Source of the DNA: a virus
Taxonomy: Duplodnaviria > Caudoviricetes
IMG/VR virus record: IMGVR_UViG_3300009168_000009
Span: 227-64,226 of that record
Direction: 5' to 3' (one strand)
Length of the DNA: 64,000 bases
The first letter of the stretch is position 1. Each line of letters starts with the position of its first letter. The translations under genes and the position numbers were made by a program. Below are positions 2,738-40,155 of the stretch, in pieces. The notes beneath the pieces are model-generated. The model had not been told where the DNA came from. It did no database searches and saw only the letters and a list, made by a program, of their open reading frames with translations.

Positions 2738-4195
2738 TCACAGCTTGATCATGATGTTTAAGAAGGTGGTCGGCTGCACGATCGAGAATGGGACGTTGCC
2801 GCCCTGGTTGCCGAGGACGATTCCGATCGGGGAGGCATTGACGGTGACTTGCTGCGAGTAGCCGCCCCATAGGCCGACGTTGTAGGTGCTGCCGCCCTCG
2901 ATCGAAACATAGCTCGCGGTGATGTTGTAGTTGTAGTTGCCCTGCGCGAAATGGGTATGATTCGGATCGGTGACACCGTGGGTGTGCGCGGCGTGCTCGC
3001 CGCCGCTGAAGGTGTAGGTTTCCGCGCCCTGGACGTTGCCGAGTGGACGAGCGGTGAGGCCGAGCCCGCTGCCGGCAACCGCCAGCGCGCGGCCCAGCAT
3101 TTTGGTTAGGCCGATCTTTTTATGCGCGTCGAAATCCGCCTTCGCGCCAGTGCCGCGACCGCCCGGCGTCACCGGCGCATTGGTGTTGTTGATATTGGTC
3201 CAGATCAGAATGAACAGAGCTTCGCAATCGGCATTGGCGCGCGTGGTCGCGCCTGACGTGGCATCGCCGATGGTGCCATCGTTCGCCATCACCCAACCGG
3301 GATCGGCGACGGTCTTTAGTGTCAGCTTGGCGTCGCCGGTCGAAAAGTTGGCGGTGGCCAACAGCGCCTTGACGAACTCGACCGTCACCAGCTGCTTGTT
3401 GTCGGCGGGCTCGACTGGCGTGGGCGCTTTCGGTACGCCGGTGAACACCGGCGAGGCCAGCGGAGCGTAGGCCGAGAGATCGACACCGCCGCCACCGCCG
3501 GAGCCCATGGCGATGTCTACATAGTTCTTGGTGGCGACCTCGGTTGGTCCGAGCGGATCACGGTACGCGAACAGCGGCCCTCCCAGATTGCCGCCGCCGA
3601 GTGGAAGCACCCGCAGCCAAGTCCCCTCAAAGCGGCCATAGGCGAACGTGTCGTGAGGCGCGTCGCCGAATTGCGGCGCGTGGGCATCCACGTAACTCTT
3701 GGTTGCCGCCTGGGAATCGAGGGTCGGATCGCCCGGCAGGACCAGTGGCCCCGTCATGGTGTCGCCGGCACGATCGACCTTGGCGTTGTTGATTGGGACG
3801 ACCGCCGCAGCGGCGGTGGCGTCAACGTAGCCCTTGGTCGCCGCCTCGAGCGGCGCTTCTGGGTCGCCGGCCAGGACCAGCGTGCCGGTCATGGTGTCGC
3901 CGGCACGCAGCACCCGTTCGTCAATGCTCGCGTCGTAGGTTTGGAACGTGTCGCGGATCGCTTGACCGAGATTGTCAACGCGGTTGGCGTTGTAGGGCAC
4001 GCCGAGATAATCCACGGCCGCCAGAATCTCGGAAATGCCGGCGTTCACCGCGCAGTCGGTGAGGATCGTGGTGCAGTCGTTTTTGTAGTAGAGCGGCCCC
4101 TCGCCGATGACGGCATTCTGCGGACTGTAGCCGTTGCAGACGTTGCCACCGGGCGGCGCGCCGTTCTTGTCGCTCGCTGGGAATATGCCGGCCAC
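2738..4195 (-). CDS. tail fibre protein with collar-like domain
   Basis: Repeated RAGDTMTG.L.L..DP....AATK.YVD units, SPVFTGVPKAPTP motif, collar-like GDAK..PGWVMANDG, C-terminal HAAHTH..HTH and QPT..LN.MIKL. Confidence 0.85.
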   Translation of the reverse strand: MAGIFPASDKNGAPPGGNVCNGYSPQNAVIGEGPLYYKNDCTTILTDCAVNAGISEILAAVDYLGVPYNANRVDNLGQAIRDTFQTYDASIDERVLRAGDTMTGTLVLAGDPEAPLEAATKGYVDATAAAAVVPINNAKVDRAGDTMTGPLVLPGDPTLDSQAATKSYVDAHAPQFGDAPHDTFAYGRFEGTWLRVLPLGGGNLGGPLFAYRDPLGPTEVATKNYVDIAMGSGGGGGVDLSAYAPLASPVFTGVPKAPTPVEPADNKQLVTVEFVKALLATANFSTGDAKLTLKTVADPGWVMANDGTIGDATSGATTRANADCEALFILIWTNINNTNAPVTPGGRGTGAKADFDAHKKIGLTKMLGRALAVAGSGLGLTARPLGNVQGAETYTFSGGEHAAHTHGVTDPNHTHFAQGNYNYNITASYVSIEGGSTYNVGLWGGYSQQVTVNASPIGIVLGNQGGNVPFSIVQPTTFLNIMIKL

Positions 4196-4260
4196 GGGCG
4201 CGCCCTCCAGATTGCGGTTTTATACGATCCGGGGCGTTCCGGCTATAGTTTAGGGTTGAC

Positions 4261-6584: not shown

Positions 6585-7301
6585 TCACCCCCTGATGTTT
6601 CGGTCGTATGGATCATTGCCAAACCAATCGGGACCGACGCGCAGGCGCGGATAATGCCACACCGGAGGCACCGTGGTCTTGCCGGTATATTCCTCCCAAA
6701 GATAGGTCGAGTCCGGCAACGCCGAGCCCTGCACCACTAGCGACGCCGTGCCCAGGCCGGGGCCTTTGAGCACGACTTCCAGCCGCATCACGTGGCGCGA
6801 AATATACCACGGCATGACATCGATCTTTGAGGCGATGCCCCAGGTCAGCAGGTAGGAGATCGCTTCGAGTGCATACTGTCTGGCCATCATCAGCGTCTGG
6901 TTGTTGACGTGATTCCATTGCAACGCCCACAGTTTCGAGCCGCTGATAAAGGACGAGCCGCGACTGCCGACATAATCGCCGCCACGAAAAGAGTCTGCCC
7001 ACCAGCCGCCGGCCCGGCTGTGATCGATGAACGGCGGCGCTTCGTTGCACTCAACTTGCCCGCGCGTGAACAGCTGAGTGATCACCCATCCACGCAACCA
7101 GTCACGGCGATCGAGCGTGCCGCTGGCGGTGACGTTGAGATTGGGATCGCCCTCCTGAATGCCCTCGCAATTCCCCGGCCGGCACAACGGAATCCGGCGG
7201 CTGGAAATTGGCGGCTGGAACAGCGGGAAGTTCGCGGTGCGGCAGCGTGTCGGCGCTGGCTCGCAGAGATTCTGCGGCGGGCTGTATGTGATCATCGTCA
7301 T
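6585..7301 (-). CDS. Mu gp46-like baseplate protein
   Basis: LFT..RAGGWWADSF..GSKLWAL..ARQYALEAISYL. Confidence 0.85.
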   Translation of the reverse strand: MTMITYSPPQNLCEPAPTRCRTANFPLFQPPISSRRIPLCRPGNCEGIQEGDPNLNVTASGTLDRRDWLRGWVITQLFTRGQVECNEAPPFIDHSRAGGWWADSFRGGDYVGSRGSSFISGSKLWALQWNHVNNQTLMMARQYALEAISYLLTWGIASKIDVMPWYISRHVMRLEVVLKGPGLGTASLVVQGSALPDSTYLWEEYTGKTTVPPVWHYPRLRVGPDWFGNDPYDRNIRG

Positions 7302-25737: not shown

Positions 25738-26538
25738 TCAGGGCGGGGTGATCCAACCGTCCTCGGAAGCCGGCCGCCGGGCCGGTCGCATCGGCAACTC
25801 CGGCGCTGGCCGGGGCGCGGTCTTGTAGAGCACCGAGCAGCGGCAGTTGACGATCTCCTCGGGGCCTGCACCCAAGCTGCCGTCGCCGGGCCGCATCATC
25901 TGCGCGCCGCCAACCGAGAACGGTTCATCCATCGGGACGTTCTGGCCGTGGGCAGCGGCATGCGTCGGCCGCGTCTTGTTATCTCCGACCGCATGCCATG
26001 TCTTGCTCTCGATCTTGATATTCTTGTGCCGCATCGAGGCTTCGATCGCCGCCATGGCGGCGTTGTGCGTCTCCGTCCGCGCGATCGATGCCGCCCGTGC
26101 CCGCGCCAGGGCCGGCGCCTGCTTCCTGATCTCCCGCGCGATCGTGTCGGTGCCTTTGCGATCCCGCACCATGTCGCTGACGATCGTCGCGATGTCATCC
26201 ACCATCTTTTGCGCAATGTTATTGATCTGATCCCCGGCGTGGAGATCGAGCCACGCCAGCTGCTCCTGCATGAAGCGGCTGATATCAAGCGAAATCCCCG
26301 CCTTTTCCTCCAGCTGCTTGGTCACGGCACGATACTGATCGCGATAGATGCGGCGGTAGAACCGTGCCAGTAACGGCCGGCCGCGCTCGCGGATGTAGGA
26401 CTGGCCCTGGTTGAAGCCACGGGTCACTTGCATCCGGATCGCCGCCGTCAGAATCGCCGTCAGCAACACGTGCAGCCGCTGCTCGATCATGTCGAGATAC
26501 TTTTGGAATTCGCGATCAGAGGCAACGTCAAGCAGCAT
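25738..26538 (-). CDS. Mu gpF/SPP1 gp7-like minor head protein
   Basis: RA..IARTE, K.W....D..TR..H...HGQ, PGD....EIVNCRC. Confidence 0.9.
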   Translation of the reverse strand: MLLDVASDREFQKYLDMIEQRLHVLLTAILTAAIRMQVTRGFNQGQSYIRERGRPLLARFYRRIYRDQYRAVTKQLEEKAGISLDISRFMQEQLAWLDLHAGDQINNIAQKMVDDIATIVSDMVRDRKGTDTIAREIRKQAPALARARAASIARTETHNAAMAAIEASMRHKNIKIESKTWHAVGDNKTRPTHAAAHGQNVPMDEPFSVGGAQMMRPGDGSLGAGPEEIVNCRCSVLYKTAPRPAPELPMRPARRPASEDGWITPP

Positions 26539-27175
26539 CGGCCTCAGCCTCCCAGCCCCAGCAATCCCAGCCCGGCCGCGCCGGGCCGCGACGGTTCAAC
26601 TCGATCTTAGGCAGCGTTGGATAAAGCTCCTCGATCATCCGCAGAAAGACTTCCGGCTTGGCGCTGTGCGCGCCGCGTGGAGCCTCGATCACGCTCGACC
26701 ATTGTGTGCCCGGTGCCGGCGCCGGGATTGCGCCGCGCGTCCCGATCAGCAGCAGCTCGTGCCTGTTTCGGTTCCAGTAGCCGAGCCCGGCCTTGTCCTT
26801 GAGCCAGATGTGATGCGACTTATAGTCGAAGCCCCAATACGCCATCACCGTCAAAGCATGCGGCAACATCGGGACGGTCACCCAAAGGAATAAGACGGCA
26901 TCAGCAGCAGCGATCGTCTCCACTTCACGCCGCGCGATGGTCATGACGCTCGATGTCGGATAGTGATTATCGGCGGCGCGATCCATGCCCGTCTCCCGCG
27001 ACCACGGCTCCCAGCGCCATTCCGGATCGGCGACGATCACGCCGTATCGCTTGTCGGGGAGCGCGCGTTGGCGCTTGCCCAGCTCCCGCTCGCGCTTTGC
27101 GCGCAATCGTTTCTTGATCAGCGCCTTTTTATTTTTCGCATTCGCCGCACTCGAAACCGCACGCCGACTGGCCAT
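26528..27175 (-). CDS. MT-A70 family adenine methyltransferase
   Basis: YGVIVADPEW, LFLW, WGF.Y, G.GYW.R..HE.LL...RG, HS.KP, IEL..R..RPGW..WG. Confidence 0.9.
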   Translation of the reverse strand: MASRRAVSSAANAKNKKALIKKRLRAKRERELGKRQRALPDKRYGVIVADPEWRWEPWSRETGMDRAADNHYPTSSVMTIARREVETIAAADAVLFLWVTVPMLPHALTVMAYWGFDYKSHHIWLKDKAGLGYWNRNRHELLLIGTRGAIPAPAPGTQWSSVIEAPRGAHSAKPEVFLRMIEELYPTLPKIELNRRGPARPGWDCWGWEAEADAA

Positions 27176-30827: not shown

Positions 30828-31607
30828 GTGTTGTCCCCGCCGGAGGATCAGGCCGTGCTGCTCGTGACGGATAATGCCGCCGTACCGGAAAAGGTGCAAT
30901 GGCGCGGCCTGGAGTCGGTTCGACTCCCGCCGGCAACGCCGCGTCTTGGCCGCGAGCTGCTGGCGCGGACGCTGATCGAGGCGTACCGCGAGGGCGTGGA
31001 GCTGCGCCACGTGGCTGCCCTGGCCTGGAGCCGGGGCGCGGCCGTCGCCCTGTCCACGACGATCGGCGGGCTCCTGGCCGTGGAGCAGGGCTACGATCCG
31101 GACGAAATGACGCTGGAGGACTTCGATCGCGACGTGATCACCGGCACGATCGGCGCCGCCTGCTATGACCGCAACGACGATCCGCGTGAGCCGATCACCC
31201 ACAGCGAGCTGGACGATCTGGCCGAGGAATATCTGGCCATGGTCGCCAAGGCGTCCGAGCTCAGCGACACGCCCGAGGATCAGAAGTTCCTGCGCCAGAC
31301 CCGCAAGCGGATCAACGCGGCGATCAGCCTGATCGTGCGCGCGCCGCTGTTCGATCGGTCGATATTCGAGGAATGGGCGCTGGTGAAGGCGCCGGACTAT
31401 TCCATGCTCGCCCTGATCGCCGAGCAATATGCCGACTACAAGCGCGCGCTGGACGTGGCAGACATCGCCGACATTCTGGCGACGCCGGTGCGGCCGGTCG
31501 AGGACTGCGCCCTGGCGCTGATCGATCAGGCCGGGATCATCCCGCCGCTGGGCTATCGCACGCTGCGCCGGCTCCTGCCGCGCGCCAGCTTCGTGCTCAA
31601 CGGCTGA
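30828..31607 (+). CDS. hypothetical protein with degenerate UvrD/Rep-like segment
   Basis: Phage-like codon pattern; QYADYKRALDVADIADIL..LIDQAG..PL..R.L.RL echoes SF1A motif Id-II. Confidence 0.6.
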   Translation: MLSPPEDQAVLLVTDNAAVPEKVQWRGLESVRLPPATPRLGRELLARTLIEAYREGVELRHVAALAWSRGAAVALSTTIGGLLAVEQGYDPDEMTLEDFDRDVITGTIGAACYDRNDDPREPITHSELDDLAEEYLAMVAKASELSDTPEDQKFLRQTRKRINAAISLIVRAPLFDRSIFEEWALVKAPDYSMLALIAEQYADYKRALDVADIADILATPVRPVEDCALALIDQAGIIPPLGYRTLRRLLPRASFVLNG

Positions 31608-31802
31608 TCACTTGCAGCTCGGCAGCGACGGATAACGTGCGCAGACCTTGGCGCGGACTCGGGCCTTCTGCGATGGCGTCCCGTGTTGCGACACTCTGGC
31701 CAGCGCGTTGGCCGCATGCTTGCGATCGTGGATCGGATAGGCGCGCTTGCCGGGGATCGCGAAGGATGACTTGCGCAGGCTGTTGCGCTTCGATGCTCTC
31801 AT
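31608..31802 (-). CDS. small basic protein (SFA.P..R.YPI.D..HA.NALAR family)
   Basis: GGAGGAAGG SD; motif recalled from phage head-region proteins. Confidence 0.75.
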   Translation of the reverse strand: MRASKRNSLRKSSFAIPGKRAYPIHDRKHAANALARVSQHGTPSQKARVRAKVCARYPSLPSCK

Positions 31803-31942
31803 GATCCTTCCTCCTGCAGTGGCCCGTGGCGTCGGGAAAAGGAATTAAACCGGCACCACGGGCGGCCGTTGTTATTGCGGACACCGACGGCTGGTCCGGT
31901 CGAAGCTGAGGACAGCCGCAAAGCCAGCCCGACCGCCGCAGC

Positions 31943-32155
31943 TTAACAGTCGTCGTCGTCGTCGTCGCCTTCGGCAAAGTCCGGCGGCTCGTCCTCGATC
32001 TTGAGCGCGCCGGCTGCGAGCAGCTGCTTGATCTGATCCGTCGCCGTGTCCGCGAGATAGGCCGCAGTTTCGCCAGCCGGAATCTTGAGCGTGCCGCCCT
32101 GGCCGTCCTCGATCTCCAACTCGCTGCCGCTGGTATTCGTAAGCAGTACCGACAT
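31943..32155 (-). CDS. small acidic protein
   Basis: GGGAG SD; poly-Asp C-terminus. Confidence 0.65.
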   Translation of the reverse strand: MSVLLTNTSGSELEIEDGQGGTLKIPAGETAAYLADTATDQIKQLLAAGALKIEDEPPDFAEGDDDDDDC

Positions 32156-32286
32156 GGCCTGCACTCCCGTTTCCCTGATCCTGCGCCCCTGGAGCGCGGG
32201 GGATCAAGTCATGCACGAACGTGCAAATCCTGGACTTTTCGGACGAAAAATCGGGCAAGTCATTGATATTGCAGGCAGAATGTGCC

Positions 32287-32315
32287 TTGCAAGTCGCAAA
32301 ATGCGACATTATAAT
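32287..32315 (+). promoter_or_regulatory. sigma70-type promoter with palindromic operator filling the spacer
   Basis: TTGCAA-N17-TATAAT; the spacer contains GTCGCA-AAA-TGCGAC. Confidence 0.85.
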
Positions 32316-32607
32316 AGAGGCTCTATTGGGAGTGACTGTTTAGACGACGTTCTGCACTCCCCCGCTGTTTGAAAATTCGATCGCCCTGGATCACGTGTCC
32401 ACAACGGCCCAGGCTTTACCCGCTGATCGATCCATAGTCGTCCTAAGTCGCAAGCGCAGAAGTCGCTCGCGTCCCGCAGTGATTGCGCGACGCAGCGAGG
32501 CAATCGGCATTGCCCATCTGGCCTATCGGAATTTCGCCCCGGCCATTCGAGGATTGAGCCCGACGCTTGCAGATGTGAGGAAGACCGAAAACGACTCCAT
32601 GACAGTG

Positions 32608-32720
32608 TGACAATACTTAGGGCGGCGAACGCGACTCACGTTGCGCGCGCCGCCTCAGAGTGTTGCTGACGCAGCACTCGTCGCCTTGCAGCGACGTTTC
32701 TCGAAATGGAGTCACAACCA
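32608..32720 (+). repeat. structured leader motif copy A
   Basis: GC hairpin, AGTGTTGC/GCAGCACT hairpin, CGTCGC-CTTGCA-GCGACG, GGAGTCAC-N5-ATG. Confidence 0.85.
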
Positions 32721-32906
32721 ATGGAAGTCAACACCCGAGAATTTGAATTCTCGCACGGCAAGAAACCCCGAGGCTCCGGCTTCTGGATTTTCTTTTTCGA
32801 CAATGCGCGCACGTTCACGTTCGCCGGCAAATACGGCGATGCCGTTCGTGCCGCAAAGATCGAGGCCCGCCAGCAAGAAGTTTACGAGATCAAGGTGGGG
32901 CCGTGA
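32721..32906 (+). CDS. hypothetical early protein
   Basis: ATG after motif A; F.FSHGKKPRG.G.W.F motif. Confidence 0.75.
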   Translation: MEVNTREFEFSHGKKPRGSGFWIFFFDNARTFTFAGKYGDAVRAAKIEARQQEVYEIKVGP

Positions 32907-32908
32907 TC

Positions 32909-33112
32909 ATGAGCACATCGATCGATCACATCAAACTGGCCGACGGCGCGCGCGTGCGCTGCGGCCTGATCGTTCACCGCGCGGATGATCCGTTCCACTT
33001 GGGACGGATCGAAGCCGTGCACGGCAACATGAAGCTGACAGTAAAGTGGGAAAACGGATGGCTTGAACTTGGATGCGAGCCGGACGAATTCGCACGCTGG
33101 AGCGGGGAGTGA
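32909..33112 (+). CDS. hypothetical early protein (SH3-like)
   Basis: ORF coupled to previous gene. Confidence 0.6.
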   Translation: MSTSIDHIKLADGARVRCGLIVHRADDPFHLGRIEAVHGNMKLTVKWENGWLELGCEPDEFARWSGE

Positions 33113-33117
33113 TCAGA

Positions 33118-33207
33118 ATGCTCGCCGTTTACATCACTGCAACGATCCTGGCCGTGCCGGCCGGAATATGGATCGGACTTAAACTTGCCGATCTGACTTA
33201 CCGATGA
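33118..33207 (+). CDS. 29-aa hydrophobic peptide
   Basis: GGGGAG SD; MLAVYITATILAVPAGIWIGLKLADLTYR*; its stop is the start of motif B. Confidence 0.55.
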   Translation: MLAVYITATILAVPAGIWIGLKLADLTYR

Positions 33208-33303
33208 TCACTAAGGACGGCGCCGCGTGCGCCGTCTCATAGTGTTCAATCGAACACTACGCTGCCTTGCATGCAGCGTTTCTCGAAACATGAGTCACAC
33301 ATC
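33205..33303 (+). repeat. structured leader motif copy B
   Basis: TGATCACTA..GACGGCGC/GCGCCGTC..AGTGTTC/GAACACT..CGCTGC-CTTGCAT-GCAGCG..GAGTCAC. Confidence 0.9.
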
Positions 33304-34329
33304 ATGACAACTACCCAAGCGTCTAACCAGTCCGGCGTGACAATCGCGAAGGCAGCTGAGCTGCTGGAGGATTACACCGAAGCTGGCGACAACGTTTTCC
33401 TCTGGGGCGCTCCCGGTATCGGCAAAACCGACATCGCGCACCAACTCGCAGCGCGCAAGAAGCGGCGCCTGATCGAGTTTCACGCAGCGTTGCGTGAACC
33501 AGTGGACTTGCGCGGCATTCCTGCGGCCGATCATAAGACGATGACCACGAAGTGGTTCACGCCGGATGAATTGCCGCAAGCCAAGCGCGATGGCGAGGAA
33601 GGCTACTTGTTCCTCGACGAATTCAATCAAGCCAGCCCGCAGATGCAGGCCGTGCTGGCAGGATTGGTGCTGTACGGAAACATTGGCGACTATCGTCTCC
33701 CGAAAGGCTGGCGATGCATCGCTGCAGGAAACAGCGTTTCCGACCGTGCAGCCGCGCAACGAATGCCGACGCATATGCGAAACCGTTTCGCGCACGTTTA
33801 CTGCGTGCCGGACGTGATCGCGTGGACGAATTGGGCGACCGCCAACGGCGTCGAGCCGGAAATGATCGCCTTCATTCGTTTGCGACGTGAGCTGATCCAC
33901 CGCATGCCGCGCGGTGACGAGAATGCATTTCCCACGCCGAGGTCGCTGACCAAAGCCGCGAAATACATTCACCATCCGGACGATCGCCGCTTGCGATTGT
34001 TCGCGGGATTGATCGGGGATGACGTTGCAGCCGAGTTGAACGGCTTCATCCGCCTCTATCACTCGCTGGGAAGCCTGGAAGATATCGTCGCCAATCCTGA
34101 TCGTGCGCCGATACCGACGCAAGCCTCCGAACGCTGGGCCGTCTGCACTGGCCTTGCCCGTCTCGCGGATCGCAAAAACTTTCCGCAGATCATGAAGTAT
34201 GCCGCGCGCCTCGACGGGGAGCCGGCCACGTTGCTTGTTCATGACGCAACGATGATCAAGCCGGAGCTGAAACAAACGTCTGCCTATTCAAAGTGGGCAG
34301 TCGAGCATGCCGACTTGATCCTGCAGTGA
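33304..34329 (+). CDS. MoxR-like AAA+ ATPase
   Basis: Walker A GAPGIGKT, D..G.P, Walker B LFLDE, AAGN, RNRF, TPRS. Confidence 0.92.
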   Translation: MTTTQASNQSGVTIAKAAELLEDYTEAGDNVFLWGAPGIGKTDIAHQLAARKKRRLIEFHAALREPVDLRGIPAADHKTMTTKWFTPDELPQAKRDGEEGYLFLDEFNQASPQMQAVLAGLVLYGNIGDYRLPKGWRCIAAGNSVSDRAAAQRMPTHMRNRFAHVYCVPDVIAWTNWATANGVEPEMIAFIRLRRELIHRMPRGDENAFPTPRSLTKAAKYIHHPDDRRLRLFAGLIGDDVAAELNGFIRLYHSLGSLEDIVANPDRAPIPTQASERWAVCTGLARLADRKNFPQIMKYAARLDGEPATLLVHDATMIKPELKQTSAYSKWAVEHADLILQ

Positions 34330-34426
34330 TCACTAAGGACGGCCCCACGCGGGGCCGTCTCATAGTGTTCATGACGAACACTCCCGCCCTTGCAGCGGGA
34401 TCATCTGCAAAATGGAGTCACACATC
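34327..34426 (+). repeat. structured leader motif copy C
   Basis: Same three hairpins with different but complementary stems; GGAGTCAC. Confidence 0.9.
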
Positions 34427-35518
34427 ATGCCTACCAAGACCACAGGCGCGGCGAAACGCAACGCAAAGGGGCTTCCCCCGATCGTCGCGAAAAAGTCGAA
34501 GGCCAAGGCGCACACTTCCAAGGCTGCACCGCTGGCGATCGTGAAGGCTGACAAGCCCGCACCGAAGCCCGTCGCGCCGCCCGCGCCGAAGCCCGCTCCC
34601 GTGATCACTAAGACAGTCGTCGCCACGCCGCTCTCGCGGAAGGCCACGCTTGTCGCCGTAGTGATCTCGCAATGGACAGCCCGCAAGCTGGACAAGAAAG
34701 TGACCGATGAAGTCAATCGTTCACATGGAGCTGCAGCCGACGCCGGACGATTCAACAAGTTGCTGATCGAGGCCGCGCGCCTCGAAAAGCTCGGATCGCT
34801 CGTGTCGCAAGCCCGCCACGCACATTATCGCTACACGAAGCCGTGGTGCGATGAAGGAATGAGAATCCTGCCGAACGCTCTGCATCAAAAGTTTGCCGAG
34901 GAGTTTCGCAGGATCAAACGGGAATTCCATATCGCGGCCGATGAATTCTGCCGCGACTACCCGTCATTCGTGGCTGAACGCAAGAAGGCGTTGAATGGAT
35001 TGTTCAACGCTGCCGACTATCCGGACGCAAAGGAAATTCGTGCCAAGTTTCAACTCGACACGAAAACATTCCCCGTGCCGGACGCTGGCGACTTCCGCAG
35101 CGACGTGCTCGATCATGACACGATCGAGGACATCAAGCGGGAGCTGGCCGAGACGAACGAACAAGTGCTGGCCGACGCCACCCGCCACTCGATCGATCAG
35201 ATCACGCGGATCGTTGGCCACATGTCGGAAAAGCTGTCGGAATACAAGCCGGGAGCGCCCGTCAAGAAAGGCAAGGGCGGCAAGCCGAAGAAAACATTCT
35301 TCACCGACTCGCTCGTGGAAAACGTCCGCGAGCTGGCCGACTTGTTGCCTGCGTTCAATCTGACGAATGATCCGAAGATGGATCACATCGCCAGTCGCAT
35401 CAAAAAAGAGTTGTGCACCGAGGATGCCGCGGAATTGCGAGTGAGCGAACGTGCTCGCGATGCCGTGCAGAAGTCGGCAGACGACATTCTTAAAGATGTG
35501 AACAAGTTGCTCGGCTAA
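34427..35518 (+). CDS. helical protein typically found with phage AAA/VWA pairs (DUF3150-like)
   Basis: ISQWTARKLD, T.PW...G.R.LP, LFN..DYP....R.KF, L..FNLT.DP motifs; Lys/Pro-rich N-terminal tail. Confidence 0.7.
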   Translation: MPTKTTGAAKRNAKGLPPIVAKKSKAKAHTSKAAPLAIVKADKPAPKPVAPPAPKPAPVITKTVVATPLSRKATLVAVVISQWTARKLDKKVTDEVNRSHGAAADAGRFNKLLIEAARLEKLGSLVSQARHAHYRYTKPWCDEGMRILPNALHQKFAEEFRRIKREFHIAADEFCRDYPSFVAERKKALNGLFNAADYPDAKEIRAKFQLDTKTFPVPDAGDFRSDVLDHDTIEDIKRELAETNEQVLADATRHSIDQITRIVGHMSEKLSEYKPGAPVKKGKGGKPKKTFFTDSLVENVRELADLLPAFNLTNDPKMDHIASRIKKELCTEDAAELRVSERARDAVQKSADDILKDVNKLLG

Positions 35519-35523
35519 GACGA

Positions 35524-35622
35524 GCTGCAGCGTGATCAGCGACTCGAATCGAGTCGCTGATTGCAGTGGAGCTAGTCCACTCCCCGCCTTGCAGCGGGGC
35601 CTTTCCAAAATGGAGTCACATC
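35524..35622 (+). repeat. structured leader motif copy D (most divergent)
   Basis: ATCAGCGACTCG/CGAGTCGCTGAT, AGTGGA/TCCACT, CCCCGC-CTTGCA-GCGGGG, GGAGTCAC. Confidence 0.85.
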
Positions 35623-37071
35623 ATGGAAACCAAAACCGACAAGGTTGCCGGCGATCGTGTCCGCAAGGCGCGCGCCGAGTTGATCTTGTCGCAAGTGTTC
35701 TACAGCGTGCTCGTTTCAAACGTTGATCCGAAGCCGTCGCGGGCGATCCCCACGATGGCAACGGATGGCCGGAACCACTTCTATAATCCGGACTTCATTG
35801 CGAAGCTGAATCAAACGCAGCTGCTCGCAGTGCAGGCGCACGAAAGCGAACACGATGCCCGTCGCCATCACAGCCGACGCAATGGCCGTGATCCTGCGAA
35901 GTGGAACGAAGCCTGCGACTACGCAATCAACGTTGATCTCGTGGACGCCGGCTTCCAGCTTCCAGATTGGGTGCTCCTCGATCCGAAATATCGCGGCATG
36001 TCTGCCGAGGATATCTATCGGACACGGGAGCTGGATCAGCAGAAGGAGGAGGAGGCCAAGAAGCCACCGCCCCCGGATGACGATCAAGACGAGCCCGAGG
36101 ACGGCGAGGACGATCAGGAGCAAGACGATCAGTCGGAGGATGACAGCGACACCGGCGACGGTGACGACGAATCCGAGGACGACGCCGAGGACGATGACGC
36201 CGACGAAGGCGACAGCGACCAGGGCGGTGATGATCAGTCCGAAGATGGCGCCGACGGCGACTCCGGAAACGGGGATGCCGAGGGCGAGGACGAAGCCGAC
36301 GGACAGGGCGAAGGCCAAGCCGAAGGCGACGGCCAGGATCGCCCCGGCAAGTCGAGTGGCGATCCTGGCGGGATGGGCGAAGTGCTCGATGCCGCGACGG
36401 ATGCAGCCGACATGGCCGCAGCCGATGCCCAATGGGAGACAATCTTCCGACAGGCCGCGTTCCTCGCCGAGAAGCGGGGCACGGCTCCTGGGCACGTTAC
36501 AAGAGAGATCAAGCGCGCGGACAATCCCCCGCAAGATTGGCGAGAGACGTTGCGCGCTTGGTTCGATCAGGGATCACTCAAAGTCGAAAGCTGGAACCGT
36601 CCGAACCGGCGCTTCGCCGGGGCGGGCATCTATCTTCCTGGCCAGAGGCGGGACGGGATCAACCGTGCCGTGTTCCTGATCGACACGAGCGGATCAATGG
36701 ACCCGATCGCGTTGGCCGCCATCAATAACGAAGCGCAAGCTGCGATGGACGATGGCGTGCTTGACGAAGTGATCGTGATCTATGGCGACGTTCGTGTGAC
36801 GCGCGTCGATACCTACCGCCAAGGCGATGAAATCGAATTCGATCCCCGAGGCGGGGGCGGCACTGATCTCAAGCCGCTGTTCAAACACGTTGCAGACGAG
36901 CTGGAAGATGTATCCTTGATCGTCTGCTTCACCGACATGGAAATTGGCGATCCTGGCCCCGAGCCCGCGTGCCCCGTGCTGTTCGCAGCAACGGGATATC
37001 CGGAATCGGTGCGACGATATCTCGCCAACGCTCCGTGGAATTCTCCCGGCATCGATGTCGGGACGCATTGA
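35623..37071 (+). CDS. metallopeptidase-like + VWA domain protein (DUF2201-type)
   Basis: TMATDG, HESEH, WN.A.D.AIN, acidic linker, MIDAS DTSGSM, GGGGTD, FTD. Confidence 0.9.
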   Translation: METKTDKVAGDRVRKARAELILSQVFYSVLVSNVDPKPSRAIPTMATDGRNHFYNPDFIAKLNQTQLLAVQAHESEHDARRHHSRRNGRDPAKWNEACDYAINVDLVDAGFQLPDWVLLDPKYRGMSAEDIYRTRELDQQKEEEAKKPPPPDDDQDEPEDGEDDQEQDDQSEDDSDTGDGDDESEDDAEDDDADEGDSDQGGDDQSEDGADGDSGNGDAEGEDEADGQGEGQAEGDGQDRPGKSSGDPGGMGEVLDAATDAADMAAADAQWETIFRQAAFLAEKRGTAPGHVTREIKRADNPPQDWRETLRAWFDQGSLKVESWNRPNRRFAGAGIYLPGQRRDGINRAVFLIDTSGSMDPIALAAINNEAQAAMDDGVLDEVIVIYGDVRVTRVDTYRQGDEIEFDPRGGGGTDLKPLFKHVADELEDVSLIVCFTDMEIGDPGPEPACPVLFAATGYPESVRRYLANAPWNSPGIDVGTH

Positions 37072-37162
37072 TCACTAAGGGCGGCCCTGCGGGGCCGCCT
37101 CGTAGTGTTCATTCCGAACACTCGCCCATCTTGCATGGGCGTTTCTCAGAAGGAGTCACGTC
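37069..37162 (+). repeat. structured leader motif copy E
   Basis: GGCGGCCC/GGGCCGCC, AGTGTTC/GAACACT, CGCCCA-TCTTGCA-TGGGCG, GGAGTCAC. Confidence 0.9.
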
Positions 37163-37339
37163 ATGGCTACGAAAGTTGGTCGCGCACGAGCGTTGCGAGC
37201 GTGGGAGACAATGCGCTCCCCGGTTTGGCAACGGCAGCGACGGAAGATTGAGAATCTGCGGCAAGCCCTCGCCGCAGCGCGTCGCGAGCTGATCACTGCA
37301 CTGTCCAATCTGGACAAAGTGATTAAGCAGTCATCATGA
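37163..37339 (+). CDS. 58-aa basic coiled-coil protein
   Basis: Manual translation MATKVGRARALRAWETMR..; ATG follows motif E. Confidence 0.65.
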   Translation: MATKVGRARALRAWETMRSPVWQRQRRKIENLRQALAAARRELITALSNLDKVIKQSS

Positions 37340-37518
37340 ACCGCAGCGACTTCTTTGATCAAGGCTACGAACAACACGCTTCCGCCCCCGACATGTTGAT
37401 GACGGAAGTCTGGCGTTTCGCTTGCATGTTCATCACGGATCAAGAGAACGCCCGCGCCTTCGTTGAGGGTTACACCGCCGCGCGCAAGCAGCGCGACGAA
37501 CGCAACGCAGAACAGTGA
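37336..37518 (+). CDS. hypothetical protein
   Basis: ATGA overlap; its stop begins motif F. Confidence 0.65.
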   Translation: MNRSDFFDQGYEQHASAPDMLMTEVWRFACMFITDQENARAFVEGYTAARKQRDERNAEQ

Positions 37519-37613
37519 TCACTGCAGGACGCCGCCGCTGTGCGGCGTCCGACAGTGTTCATGCCGAACACGCCCCGCCTTGCAGCGGGTTTTTCGAAAA
37601 AGGAGTCACAGTC
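37516..37613 (+). repeat. structured leader motif copy F
   Basis: 37514-37562 is identical to 38016-38064 (49 nt). Confidence 0.9.
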
Positions 37614-37862
37614 ATGTTACGAGTTTTGTTTGGCGTCATCCTCGCCAGCATCTTCGGCCGGTCAAGCGTATCGGTCGAAACGAACGTGCAAACGTTCACA
37701 GACGAGCTGCCGGACGACGAGCTGCCCGAGGATGTCGGCGAAGTCGCCGAGGACTACGACTTGCTCGATGTCGATCTTGCCGACGGCCTGATCGATGACG
37801 TGAGCGATTCGCTGTTCGATGATCTCGGCGGATCAGTCCTCGACTCATTCCTCGACTGCTGA
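37614..37862 (+). CDS. small protein with hydrophobic N-terminus and highly acidic body
   Basis: ATG after motif F; MLRVLFGVILASIFG..DELPDDELPEDV.. Confidence 0.65.
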   Translation: MLRVLFGVILASIFGRSSVSVETNVQTFTDELPDDELPEDVGEVAEDYDLLDVDLADGLIDDVSDSLFDDLGGSVLDSFLDC

Positions 37863-37873
37863 GGAGGCGAACG

Positions 37874-38020
37874 ATGGAATCATTATTGATGGGCATCCTC
37901 ATGATCGCAGTCGGCGTCGGAGTGTGCTGGCTGGGAAATGCCAAAGCCAGAAGACGACGGCGGCTGATCATAGAACGCTACGAAATTCTCCGAGAGCACG
38001 CCGCGCGGAAGCGCAAGTGA
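37874..38020 (+). CDS. 48-aa membrane-anchored basic peptide
   Basis: GAGGAGG SD; MESLLMGILMIAVGVGVCWLGNAKARRRRR.. Confidence 0.6.
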   Translation: MESLLMGILMIAVGVGVCWLGNAKARRRRRLIIERYEILREHAARKRK

Positions 38021-38111
38021 TCACTGCAGGACGCCGCCGCTGTGCGGCGTCCGACAGTGTTCATACCGAACACTCCCCGCCTTGCAGCGGGGCGATTGAA
38101 TGGAGTCACAC
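38018..38111 (+). repeat. structured leader motif copy G
   Basis: Same architecture; CCCCGC-CTTGCA-GCGGGG; GGAGTCAC. Confidence 0.9.
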
Positions 38112-38759
38112 ATGCCTAAGTTACCCAAGTGGCGGCCGTTGCAGCGCGCAACGACTGCCGGACGGGAGAATGCCGAAGCCGTCGCCACGGCCATGCAAAC
38201 GTATGGCCTGGACGAAGCAGCGGCACGGGCAAAACTTGATGCCTACGCCGCCGAGTCTGAATACTGGATCAACGATCTCTATCAAGTCCAAGTCCGACGC
38301 TACGCCGATCTCACTCACATCAATATCCGACGACGCGACGGCGGCCCGATCCTGCGAGACTGGCGACACTTCCAGCAGATCAAGAATGAGTTGGTCGGCA
38401 CGGAGGCGGAAGCCGTCGAGCTGTATCCAGCTGAGAGTCGGAAGTGGGATGAAGCCAACAAGTATCATCTTTGGTGTCTGACGGACGGCTCGCGCTTTCC
38501 GTTCGGCTTCGATGATCGTCACGTCAGCTTCGACAGCGGCAAGGCCCGTGGATTGCGGCAACGGGGCCGCACGATGGAATTCCCCGATGATGACAAGTCC
38601 ACAGCGCAGGAGCTGGGACCGCAGAGACGCGCCTGCAGAATGTGCGGAGCGACCGAGGGCGAGCTGCATCACGATCAATCCGCGCGCGATCGAATGACGA
38701 CGCTCGATCCGCGACTCGTCTGCATGCTCTGCGCAGAAGGACTGGCCGAGCTAGACTGA
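38112..38759 (+). CDS. conserved phage hypothetical protein with C-terminal Zn finger
   Basis: DWR.FQ.IKNEL.G.E.EAVELYP.ESR..D.AN.YHLW motif; CRMC..CMLC. Confidence 0.8.
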   Translation: MPKLPKWRPLQRATTAGRENAEAVATAMQTYGLDEAAARAKLDAYAAESEYWINDLYQVQVRRYADLTHINIRRRDGGPILRDWRHFQQIKNELVGTEAEAVELYPAESRKWDEANKYHLWCLTDGSRFPFGFDDRHVSFDSGKARGLRQRGRTMEFPDDDKSTAQELGPQRRACRMCGATEGELHHDQSARDRMTTLDPRLVCMLCAEGLAELD

Positions 38760-38765
38760 AACTCA

Positions 38766-38800
38766 AAACCCCGACCACTTGCGTGGCCGGGGTTTTTTTT
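38766..38800 (+). terminator. rho-independent terminator closing the leader-motif array
   Basis: AAAACCCCGACCAC-ttgc-GTGGCCGGGG followed by a T run. Confidence 0.9.
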
Positions 38801-38999
38801 GGCGTGGCAGTCTTGCATACAGCCAGCCCGCCGCGCGCTCTGCGAGTCACACGAGCACGGCACGCGCGATTGCGTGAAGTGGTATCCCGTTCGTATCGTC
38901 CGCACAACAAGCCGTTGCCCAAGTCCCGCACGTGCGGGCTCGACTTGACGCAGCAAGCTGTGCCCGATCGTGCGTCACTTGCAAAAGTTTATCTTGTGC

Positions 39000-39017
39000 A
39001 ATGTCGCATTTTGCGAC
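39000..39017. promoter_or_regulatory. second copy (inverted) of the 18-bp operator
   Basis: AATGTCGCATTTTGCGAC is the exact reverse complement of 32293-32310. Confidence 0.85.
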
Positions 39018-39036
39018 ACGTTCAACGGAGTGAAAG

Positions 39037-39225
39037 ATGCAAACGAAAACATTCGTCAGGCAAGTCCGCCAGGAGCTTGATCTGCGGCAGCTGGACTTCG
39101 CTGCCGCGCTTGGAGTCTCGCGTGCGACGATCGTTCGTTATGAGAACGGGGCATCCGTCCGCCCCATTGTCCTACGTGCGATCCGTCAACTGCGAGAACA
39201 ACACAAGAGGAAAAGGAAGACATGA
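39037..39225 (+). CDS. XRE-family HTH regulator
   Basis: R..L.L.Q..FA..LGVS..TI.RYENG. Confidence 0.9.
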   Translation: MQTKTFVRQVRQELDLRQLDFAAALGVSRATIVRYENGASVRPIVLRAIRQLREQHKRKRKT

Positions 39226-39425
39226 GACGCCGACGCATATCGAGGCTTAATCCCGCGAAGCCTCCTCCTCCTCCGATCGCATTGAACGCGCTCGGACTGC
39301 CGTTGTCTCCGTTGTTCGATCGCAAGTGGAAACGCAAGATGCCGCTGACATCGATCCGGAGACTCCTTGTACCGCAGAACGGATTCCGTTTTGTGCAGGA
39401 CGATCGAGGACACGATGGACCCTGA
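39222..39425 (+). CDS. hypothetical basic protein
   Basis: ATGA overlap with HTH gene. Confidence 0.45.
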   Translation: MRRRRISRLNPAKPPPPPIALNALGLPLSPLFDRKWKRKMPLTSIRRLLVPQNGFRFVQDDRGHDGP

Positions 39426-39585
39426 CGCATGTTTGATCCGACTCCTCGAAGCGATCGGGGACAACGATTGGGATGAATCCCTCCATGCCCTGGACGATCT
39501 ATTCCAGTGGCTCAGTCGTGGGGGCTTCGCCCCCAACACGCAAGCTGCAGCCGAGACGCTGCGAGAACGGATGCGTGATCGATGA
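39415..39585 (+). CDS. hypothetical protein
   Basis: GAGG SD; MDPDACL..L..WL.RGGF.P motif. Confidence 0.65.
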   Translation: MDPDACLIRLLEAIGDNDWDESLHALDDLFQWLSRGGFAPNTQAAAETLRERMRDR

Positions 39586-39938
39586 AGGCACTCTCCATCC
39601 AGCAGCCGTGGGCTCACTTGATCGTCGCGGGATTGAAGCCGATCGAGAATCGGACGTGGACGACAGCCTATCGCGGCCCGCTCCTGATCCATGCGTCGCA
39701 GAAGATGTGCATTGCAGTCGAGTCGATCGAAGCCGCGTTCGGCATCAAGATCGATCGCCGACTTCTGCATTTCGGATGCGTGATCGGGCGCGTCGATCTT
39801 GTGGACGTGATCGAGGAATCGGACTCCCCATGGTTCGATGGCCCCTACGGCTTCGTCCTGCGCAATCCACGTCCGATCAAGCCGAGGCCGTGGCGTGGCC
39901 AGCTCAAACTCTTTGACGTGACGATGAAAATTCACTGA
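39582..39938 (+). CDS. ASCH domain protein
   Basis: MKALSIQQPWA.LI..G.K.IENR.W...YRGPLLIHA..GQLKLF. Confidence 0.92.
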   Translation: MKALSIQQPWAHLIVAGLKPIENRTWTTAYRGPLLIHASQKMCIAVESIEAAFGIKIDRRLLHFGCVIGRVDLVDVIEESDSPWFDGPYGFVLRNPRPIKPRPWRGQLKLFDVTMKIH

Positions 39939-39966
39939 CTCCAACCCAGAGTGAAAAGGAAAAGAC

Positions 39967-40155
39967 ATGACTCGACTACTGACTGCCGCTGCGATCCTCG
40001 CAGCGTTGACGCTGACGGCTCACGCCGAATCGCGTTCCTACTACAATGCGAAGGGCTCCTATGCGGGCTCCTCCTACACGCGCGGCAACTCCACGTCCTT
40101 CTATGACAGTCGCGGATCGTATGCCGGATCGAGCATCCGGACGGGGAGGCGATGA
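39967..40155 (+). CDS. small exported protein with tandem repeat
   Basis: Signal peptide ending AHA; SYYNAKGSYAGSS / SFYDSRGSYAGSS. Confidence 0.7.
   Translation: MTRLLTAAAILAALTLTAHAESRSYYNAKGSYAGSSYTRGNSTSFYDSRGSYAGSSIRTGRR

Follow-up and report, generated by a model that had tools for sequence, protein, structure and literature searches.

A candidate two-state RNA element repeated between the gene modules of a phage operon

The operon and its seven element copies

The DNA analysed here (the window) is a stretch of 64,000 nucleotides, positions 227 to 64,226 of the IMG/VR virus record IMGVR_UViG_3300009168_000009; it covers nearly the entire 64,226-base record and has a G+C content of 62%. 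It contains an operon in which an element of ~100 nt is found in seven copies (A to G), all on the + strand (cmsearch). The site under study is copy B (33203..33306, 88.4 bits), which extends from the stop of a 29-aa open reading frame (ORF) to the ATG of a MoxR/AAA_5 ATPase gene. The element is composed of a 5' strand containing the upstream stop codon, three hairpins (P1, P2, and P3), and the ribosome-binding site (RBS) of the following gene. An initial annotation of copy B proposed that a central strand pairs either within P2 or with the 5' strand (the "outer helix"), and that this choice is relayed to the Shine-Dalgarno sequence (SD) by a stretch of P2 set free in the second state. The comparisons described below argue for the two competing helices and for their tie to the upstream stop codon, and against the relay to the SD.

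The operon is delineated by a promoter and a terminator-like end, and all genes between them are on the + strand. The promoter (32287..32315, + strand) is sigma-70-like, with the boxes TTGCAA and TATAAT separated by 17 nt, and is the sole promoter-like site within positions 31500-40000 according to a promoter scan. Its spacer harbors a palindrome, GTCGCAAAATGCGAC (32293-32307). The reverse complement of this palindrome, GTCGCATTTTGCGAC, occurs at 39003-39017, just upstream of a 62-aa HTH_3 gene (39037-39225); from their sequences, the two sites look like putative operators of one repressor. The terminator-like end (38769..38800, + strand), as read from the sequence, is a GC-rich hairpin (CCCCGACCAC, loop TTGC, GTGGCCGGGG) followed by T8; positions 38769-38800 are absent from the list of a simple terminator scan, the stem having one mismatch. 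Right after it (38812-38850), CTTGCA is followed by GAGTCAC with no start codon behind, an arrangement kept in the loci L001 and L002 and present in a tighter version in L003.

Copy A (32608-32722 by cmsearch, the feature extending to 32723) is located in the 5' leader, ~290 nt downstream of the promoter, and possesses a long P1 and a 9-bp P2. It is followed by a 61-aa gene (32721-32906), a 69-aa gene, and the 29-aa hydrophobic peptide ORF (33118-33207), the stop of which is the TGA of copy B. The MoxR/AAA_5 ATPase gene (33304-34329) comes after copy B, and copy C (34325-34429) spans from the MoxR stop to the ATG of a DUF3150-like gene (34427-35518), the score of which is below the Pfam cut-off. 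The divergent copy D (35516..35625) includes the TAA at 35516-35518; its cmsearch match covers 35531-35625, and that of model R3 (see below) 35522-35625. It precedes a DUF2201 metallopeptidase/VWA gene (35623-37071), whose product carries a long acidic, Asp/Glu-rich low-complexity insert (36088-36323) visible as short direct repeats in the DNA. Copy E (37067-37165) lies ahead of a 58-aa gene (37163-37339) overlapped by a 60-aa gene (37336-37518). Copy F (37514-37616) is found ahead of an acidic 82-aa gene (37614-37862), which is followed by a 48-aa gene (37874-38020). The TGA of the latter belongs to copy G (38016-38114), behind which a DUF7694 gene (38112-38759) completes the operon. The genes within one module overlap (GTGA, ATGA) or are 5-11 nt apart, and the element is found between modules. 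The 29-aa and 48-aa peptides (genes at 33118-33207 and 37874-38020) are hydrophobic or basic, and each gene has its own SD.

From its 5' end, the element is made of the 5' strand with the upstream stop, P1, the central strand, the loop and 3' arm that complete P2, then P3, the RBS, and the ATG, over a length of 87-120 nt (median 102). The 5' strand has the consensus (A)GTGATCACT(A/G), in which the TGA closes the upstream ORF. The central strand has the consensus (T/C)AGTGTTCA and forms P2 with the downstream GAACACT. P1 is a GC-rich hairpin of free sequence, and P3 has a variable stem and, in the window copies, a CTTGCA loop. The 3' end displays an A/U-rich spacer, (G)GAGTCAC, 1-5 nt, and the ATG; it provides a uniform RBS (A/U-rich spacer, GGAGUC, 6-9 nt, AUG), and the distance from CTTGCA to GGAGTC is 15-19 nt across the window copies. 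The string AGTGTTCA-N(1-8)-GAACACT was found four times, against 0.00 expected, and a looser form five times, against 0.10 expected.

In copy B, the 5' strand TGATCACTA (33205-33213) contains the TGA (33205-33207) and can form the outer helix with 33240-33248, leaving one U·U mismatch. P1 (33215-33237; GGACGGCGC, loop CGCGT, GCGCCGTCT) is a GC-rich clamp beginning 11 nt after the T of the TGA. P2 (33240-33258) is composed of the central strand TAGTGTTCA (33240-33248), a loop, and the 3' arm GAACACT (33252-33258). P3 (33260-33278) has the stem CGCTGC/GCAGCG and the loop CTTGCAT, and the RBS region (33279..33306) comprises an A/U-rich spacer, the SD motif (T)GAGTCAC (33292-33298), and the ATG (33304-33306). 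Copy D is built from helices of its own, namely the outer helix GCTGCA/TGCAGT and P2 AGTGGA/TCCACT, plus P3. Minimum free energy (MFE) folds display the outer helix in copies B and F and P2 in copies A, C, E, and G. Copies F (37514-37589) and G (38016-38091) are 97% identical over 76 nt while their flanking genes are unrelated, which points to a recent duplication or to gene conversion between copies.

Conservation and covariation of the hairpins and the outer helix

Three covariance models were employed: R1, built from five window copies; R2, a broader model; and R3, built on the outer-helix structure. A search with the MoxR protein returned five viral contigs, and an alignment-based search returned further viral and metagenomic loci (given here with the prefix L). 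R1 detects the element in every locus with a MoxR at least 54% identical. Its matches number 34, in 9 of 100 loci, in one search and 54, in 13 sources, in another; of these 54, 53 are on the + strand. Five related whole contigs have 6, 6, 5, 5, and 3 matches, all of them inside this operon. Altogether, the same operon, also with the element, is found in 12 related metagenomic phage loci, bringing the family to ~60 copies in 13 sources. The MoxR, DUF3150, and DUF2201 genes have the element ahead of them in every phage that possesses these genes. The small genes around them fall into families (gene families 4-22) that are each limited to one phage or to the close pair L150/L151, and each has its own element copy ahead.

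Beyond these loci, R2 was applied to 173 loci with a more distant MoxR and found nothing in 172 of them; the remaining one, from a Hoeflea metagenome-assembled genome (MAG, L258), gave a marginal match (E 0.0086). Nothing was found by R2 in the two whole genomes behind L257 and L258 or in 151 genomes sampled from the same order. The marginal match is a hairpin-rich spacer of L258, a locus in which a different repeated motif, CCCCGCAATCATGC, is located ahead of genes (4040-4200 and 6990-7010); by its sequence, this spacer may represent an analogous but unrelated intergenic element. A loose motif scan of viral contigs yielded 119 loci, almost all of them single chance matches, and was not used. 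Rfam 15 gave no match on the whole window at gathering thresholds and, at E<=1 on positions 32250-38850, three weak matches, none of them on any element. Literature searches found no description of the element. As judged from these comparisons, the element is an undescribed family of predicted structured RNA limited to one clade of uncultivated phages.

Covariation was analysed on an alignment (A5) for which 13 sources supplied 51 distinct rows; the structure used to fit it comprised P1-P2-P3 and left out the outer helix. In A5, the three hairpins are paired at 95.2%, against 66.1% after shuffling; none of 500 shuffles is as high, and no slid register comes close. All 21 pairs change on both sides. 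Taken separately, P1 displays nine covarying pairs of nine (97.1% paired), P2 seven of seven (95.7%), and P3 five of five, and RNAalifold independently yields all three hairpins. Furthermore, G·U is far above A·C in P1 (37:2) and in P2 (29:2; 50 rows, after dropping - strand and duplicate rows), so that the pairing is assigned to the sense RNA and not to a DNA palindrome. A scan of all column pairs identified no double-changed pairs beyond P1, P2, P3, and a single pair of the outer helix (11-71). The P3 stems vary freely, and the P3 loop is uniform inside one phage and different among phages: CUUGCA in the window, CUAGCA in all five L180 copies with a loop, CUUGCU in all three L155 copies, and AAUGCA, AUGCA, or CAUGCAA in L178. 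From sequence, this uniformity could stem from gene conversion or from a factor, particular to each phage, that reads the loop.

The claim that the central strand is shared by two exclusive helices, both covarying and of near-equal stability, is borne out by the family. All the outer-helix variants quoted in the initial annotation are present in the window, namely CACTA/TAGTG, CACTG/CAGTG, CAATACTT/GAGTGTTG, and GCTGCA/TGCAGT, the last one 5 nt after a TAA. In A5, the nine outer pairs are paired at 83.6% (75.8% when shuffled) and have a covariation score of 0.254 (0.145 when shuffled), both values being above all 500 shuffles; six of the nine pairs are double-changed, a number reached by 19 of the 500 shuffles. 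Pair 11-71 is an AU in 24 rows and a GC in 21, and is never unpaired. In the unbiased scan it ranks third among all column pairs, the other top pairs being all from P1-P3. Both of its states are encountered at orthologous positions as well as within single phages, and several independent changes from one to the other are thus involved. All three strands also change jointly in variant copies of L180 (CUGCACUA / UAGUGCGG / CUGCACU) and in copy A (CAAUACUU / GAGUGUUG / GCAGCAC, with G·U pairs). Over 47 distinct triplets, the outer duplex has a mean energy of -9.35 kcal/mol with its own partners versus -6.78 kcal/mol with swapped ones, and none of 10000 permutations is as low. The R3 alignment (58 distinct + strand rows, - strand rows dropped), which is biased towards the outer structure it was fitted to, gives 86.0% versus 68.7% paired and 83 versus 23.0 double-changed cells, with no equal among 500 shuffles. 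The models R3 and R2 score the copies alike.

The two helices are also balanced energetically. The P2 duplex has a mean of -9.31 kcal/mol, equal to that of the outer helix. When each state is enforced, the median difference G(outer)-G(P2) is -0.83 kcal/mol, the outer state being lower in 30 of 47 copies, and in the ensemble the outer helix is occupied at a mean of 0.58 and P2 at 0.32. Copy A, with occupancies of 1.00 for P2 and 0.00 for the outer helix and a difference of +6.7, is predicted to be locked in P2. When the outer helix is formed, it extends P1 into a ~20-bp rod with a small internal loop, conserved as 1x2 or 2x2.

Position of the stop codon and possible read-outs of the predicted switch

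In 34 of 53 copies, the conserved TGA is the end of the longest open frame upstream (these are open frames, not verified genes). Three A-type copies have an equivalent TGA as the end of this frame; in the others, the frame ends between -15 and +8, and in no copy does it run into P1. In copies B, C, E, F, and G of the window, the TGA of the 5' strand closes the longest upstream open frame, as initially annotated. Of 41 copies, 39 have a P1 that begins +11 to +13 from the U of this UGA, and 40 have a stop-to-start distance of 82-105 nt. This places P1 at the edge of a terminating ribosome, the position that Chemla et al. (bioRxiv 10.1101/2020.02.10.941153) ascribe to ribosome termination structures (RTS). 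Because P1 begins at +11 to +13, a terminating ribosome would cover the whole 5' strand, spare P1, and force P2 to form. The stop position and the P1 spacing fit the proposal that such a ribosome melts the outer helix; the second part of this proposal, exposure of the SD by the freed ACUC(C), is unsupported (see below).

Taken together, covariation, energetics, and spacing support a predicted switch between two states that is tied to the stop codon. Several observations weigh against this interpretation. In 16 of 53 copies, the stop precedes the conserved TGA by up to 15 nt. The outer helix has 26 G·U against 19 A·C, a ratio uninformative as to the strand. In copy D, only 2 nt are common to the outer helix and P2, and strict exclusivity is thus not universal. 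Common ancestry of orthologous copies inflates the significance of all shuffle controls. Regarding the read-out, SD accessibility is equal in both states under the nearest-neighbour model, no helix involving the RBS covaries (anti-SD, GUGA/UCAC, or AGUG/CACU), and long-range closure of the RBS is predicted in just 12 of 50 copies, all leader copies being among them.

With these points in mind, the element is best read, with a confidence that stays a little below even, as a cis-acting module of the sense RNA, ribosome-sensitive and bistable, located between the gene modules of a polycistronic phage operon. A ribosome reaching the UGA would cover the 5' strand and halt against P1; the outer helix would then be blocked, and the central strand would fold into P2. 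On an RNA without upstream translation, the rod made of the outer helix and P1 would form instead, so that the module would report upstream translation as one of two folds. The likeliest read-outs would be cutting or stabilisation of the downstream cistron, or the efficiency of initiation at the standard RBS. Pairing of ACUC(C) with GGAGU would not be the read-out, and in leader copies a GACUCC upstream of the element would close the RBS. A more specific version can be put forward only tentatively: a ribosome-actuated toggle in which termination at the UGA flips the ~20-bp rod to P2 and thereby decides expression of the next module, via processing or via a phage-specific factor that reads the P3 loop and the exposed strand. 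The operon would then be a relay chain into which genes plug with their own copy of the element.

The rod is a candidate processing signal because its shape is that of an RNase III substrate, and an alternative reading builds on this point. The early mRNA of phage T7 is cut by RNase III at intercistronic hairpins of this shape. In such a process-and-protect scheme, which is rather unlikely but has several features of the element in its favor, the outer helix and P1 would constitute a T7-type RNase III site, and cutting there would part the modules; P1 would then cap the upstream 3' end, and P2 would fold at the newly made 5' end of the downstream piece and guard it. Its logic does not need a ribosome, although ribosomes could gate the cleavage. 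Like the T7 sites, the element is intercistronic, repeated in one polycistronic mRNA, and made of two ~10-bp helices around an internal loop. The T7-type shape, a ~20-bp irregular hairpin with an internal loop, is indeed seen in the MFE folds of copies B and F and in the alignments: the rod consists of nine outer pairs and, beyond the conserved internal loop (1x2 or 2x2), 9-10 pairs of P1. P2 alone would be too short as a substrate, and sequential use of the two exclusive helices would explain why both are conserved. This scheme, however, does not account for the 34 of 53 copies whose stop is part of the 5' strand, nor for the 11-13 nt spacing of P1, and leader copy A disfavours the rod. The T7 sites are not known to have a built-in competing hairpin or a fixed relation to a stop codon.

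A static reading, which appears improbable, would take P1 as a ribosome termination structure that keeps ribosomes from sliding on after termination and so insulates modules, with de novo initiation at a standard RBS for each of them; the outer helix would merely tidy the stop region. The location of P1 at +11 to +13 in nearly all copies, which is the RTS position of Chemla et al., is what this reading expects. In either state, moreover, the SD is unpaired to about one half, and tight coupling through overlap is used for genes inside modules. It nevertheless leaves without reason the three-way complementarity kept by compensatory change and the balanced energies of the two helices.

The exact model of the initial annotation holds that the outer helix frees ACUC(C), which blocks the (G)GAGU of the SD, and that upstream termination restores P2 and a free SD. 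Its two-state input is supported, and the ACTC(C)/(G)GAGT complementarity it is based on is present in window copies. Family-wide, however, this helix is paired at 81.5%, exactly the shuffled mean, with one double-changed pair versus 1.5 expected. When formed on top of the outer state, it costs a median of +6.4 kcal/mol (minimum +1.3 kcal/mol), and the cost is below 1 kcal/mol in none of 43 copies. In folds of 41 copies extended by 60 nt of coding sequence, with the outer helix imposed, the 3' arm set free has a mean probability of 0.53 of staying unpaired, 0.32 of pairing with gene-specific coding sequence, and only 0.01 of pairing with the SD. The effect of the 5' end was assessed by folding 50 copies with the first 16 nt occupied. 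The SD opening energy (~4 kcal/mol) hardly moves (mean shift 0.17, median 0.07 kcal/mol); it rises by more than 0.5 in 12 copies and falls by more than 0.5 in 16. Copies B and F, moreover, lack the match and yet display the strongest preference for the outer helix. Nearest-neighbour models ignore tertiary contacts and kinetics, and with that limit the null result on the SD lowers the relay idea. Overall, the relay through the freed ACUC(C) is doubtful, to about the degree of the static insulator.

Two other helices that could involve the RBS were considered and rejected. One, GUGA(U):(G)UCAC, would close the element by joining the 5' strand to the flank of the SD; it is paired at 73.1% versus 71.8% when shuffled (77 of 500 shuffles as high), and its closure is predicted solely in the leader and a few other copies. 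A cloverleaf-type helix, AGUG(1-4):CACU(100-103), is paired at 74.1% versus 74.0%.

The leader copies differ in possessing an anti-SD of their own, located upstream of the element. In the window, GACTCCAT (32593..32600, + strand) is complementary to ATGGAGTC of copy A, with a duplex energy of -13.6 kcal/mol, and overlaps a mini-ORF of three codons (ATG ACA GTG TGA, 32599-32610, + strand). The leader RNA GACUCCAU, just upstream of copy A, is the complement of AUGGAGUC. In the MFE fold of copy A with its context, GACUCCAU and UGUGAC pair with the GUCACA and AUGGaAGUC of the RBS (z -4.76). GACUCC is also found upstream of the first copies in L150, L151, L152, and L155, with duplexes of -12.2 to -13.6 kcal/mol. 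Over all 49 copies, the signal is small, with -7.69 for own versus -7.09 for swapped partners (48 of 5000 permutations as low). From the leader GACUCC and the predicted closures, the RBS is predicted to be masked in this system, chiefly in leader copies and by a sequence on its 5' side. Upstream of copy A no conserved long ORF is found; relative to L150/L151, the window has indels of 45 and 31 nt in this region, and only the mini-ORF of three codons is shared.

In another reading, a protein or an RNA particular to each phage would bind the element as its operator, recognise the P3 loop and perhaps also GAACACU or GUCAC in single-stranded form, and set translation of all modules together; a factor binding the CUUGCA loop was also suggested in the initial annotation. 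The fixed loop of each phage on freely varying stems agrees with such a reader, as does the GUC after GGAG, which is conserved beyond the need of SD pairing; furthermore, the operon encodes several small proteins with unassigned function. Gene conversion, as between F and G, would give the same uniformity within a genome, and no candidate binder was identified. Such an operator would also leave the alternative helix unexplained, and it is considered about as improbable as the two preceding readings.

A role at the DNA level, as a PeSL-like promoter/terminator cassette or recombination joint with CTTGCA as the -35 box, is highly improbable: the -35 box of the operon promoter does read as CTTGCA and the copies flank variable small genes, as do the PeSLs outlined in PMC4122927, but none of the seven copies has a -10 box 16-18 nt after CTTGCA, the sole promoter-like site is outside the elements, the CTTGCA-GGAGTC spacing varies, only one of seven P3 hairpins is terminator-like, and compensatory changes, together with G·U pairs on a single strand, maintain the stems. 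Sigma-54, extracytoplasmic function (ECF), and T7-like (TCACTAAGG) promoter readings were discarded by eye, as no GG/GC spacing is present and PHROGs reveal no RNA polymerase among the 37 large ORFs.

Comparison with known systems and genomic setting

In its pairing scheme, the element is reminiscent of trp-type leader attenuators, in which the alternative 1:2 and 2:3 pairings are chosen by a ribosome on segment 1. As in attenuators, three consecutive segments form mutually exclusive helices sharing one strand. Unlike in attenuators, P3 shares no strand with the switch, a T-run/U-run after P3 is found in only one of seven copies (copy F), and the sensing ORF is a full-length upstream gene instead of a leader peptide.

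Translational coupling by RNA unfolding, as outlined in PMC12548453 for f1 VII/IX, MS2 coat-lysis, and E. coli rpmI-rplT (+52 nt), is a second relative. In both cases, the ribosome ending the upstream ORF holds a strand that would otherwise pair, and stop and start are far enough apart not to collide; the stop and P1 positions indeed bring the regulatory strand of the element within reach of the upstream ribosome. In the examples covered there, the ribosome-controlled strand masks the downstream RBS directly, whereas in the element the ribosome-sensitive helix competes with P2. The element is also portable, being found in seven copies in one operon, and its internal copies lack a supported helix masking the RBS. 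The logic of the putative switch thus resembles RNA-unfolding coupling together with attenuator pairing, minus a supported RBS mask in internal copies or a switch-dependent terminator.

Ribosome termination structures are described by Chemla et al. (bioRxiv 10.1101/2020.02.10.941153) as enriched where the intergenic distance is at least 25 nt and as located from about -5 to +20 nt of the stop end, and P1 falls in this range. They are, as presented there, a statistical property of many unrelated sequences acting as insulators; the copies of the element make up one conserved family and add an alternative helix, a third hairpin, and an RBS of their own.

Among described phage features, the SAS/ESAS of Cluster K mycobacteriophages come nearest; for these, PMC3203893 reports a 13-bp motif, GGGATAGGAGCCC, 3-7 bp ahead of the start codon. 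Like the element, these are repeated SD-core motifs in one orientation before many non-structural genes; some copies overlap the upstream stop, and the inverted-repeat consensus differs by phage subgroup. They differ from it in sequence and host lineage, the element motif (G)GAGTCAC being 1-5 nt before the ATG. According to the same paper, the ESAS half-sites do not support RNA pairing and the authors favour DNA-binding proteins; the stems of the element, in contrast, covary (21 of 21 pairs), use G·U, and have a competing helix. The PeSL cassettes of T4-like phages, as sketched in PMC4122927, are stem-loop cassettes flanking variable genes and promoter-terminator composites whose action is on DNA and transcription. 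The element shares with them a short conserved intergenic stem-loop that flanks variable genes and marks module exchange; whereas PeSLs carry an early promoter, none is detectable in the elements by the promoter scan of 31500-40000.

Known coupling devices are one-off structures bound to particular gene pairs. If both folds are read out, the element would sense upstream translation without a protein and, being portable, serve this purpose anew at each boundary between modules of the operon. Nature would then offer a counterpart to synthetic insulator and RBS parts, and the ways in which phages tune expression ratios and take up genes into one transcript could be tested on it. A static element would still represent an undescribed RNA family of ~60 copies, in which covariation is unusually clear for two competing helices.

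The genome around the operon was annotated with PHROGs for 37 large ORFs. Genes for tail sheath, baseplate, major head protein, portal, and terminase are located on the - strand at 2.7-31.4 kb, and primase/helicase, exonuclease, and repressor-like genes are found beyond this structural block; from these structural and replication genes, the genome is that of a myovirus-like phage. Plasmid and phage collections gave only short unrelated matches to the DNA of the window, and a first protein scan of genome contigs gave no match. A search of sequencing runs listed none of RNA with this sequence. In a phage protein collection queried with MoxR, identities do not exceed 31.5% among 25 listed records, and all 815 matching records are below 60%. 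The closest bacterial MoxR homologues are from Pseudochrobactrum (46%) and a Hoeflea MAG (44%), which hints, by sequence, at an alphaproteobacterial host.

Methylation was considered as a meaning of GAGTC and rejected, GANTC occurring 176 times versus ~220 expected with no special pattern. GATC, by comparison with the ~220 sites expected from base composition, is present 828 times in the window. The window also encodes an MT-A70 family methyltransferase (26528-27175, - strand).

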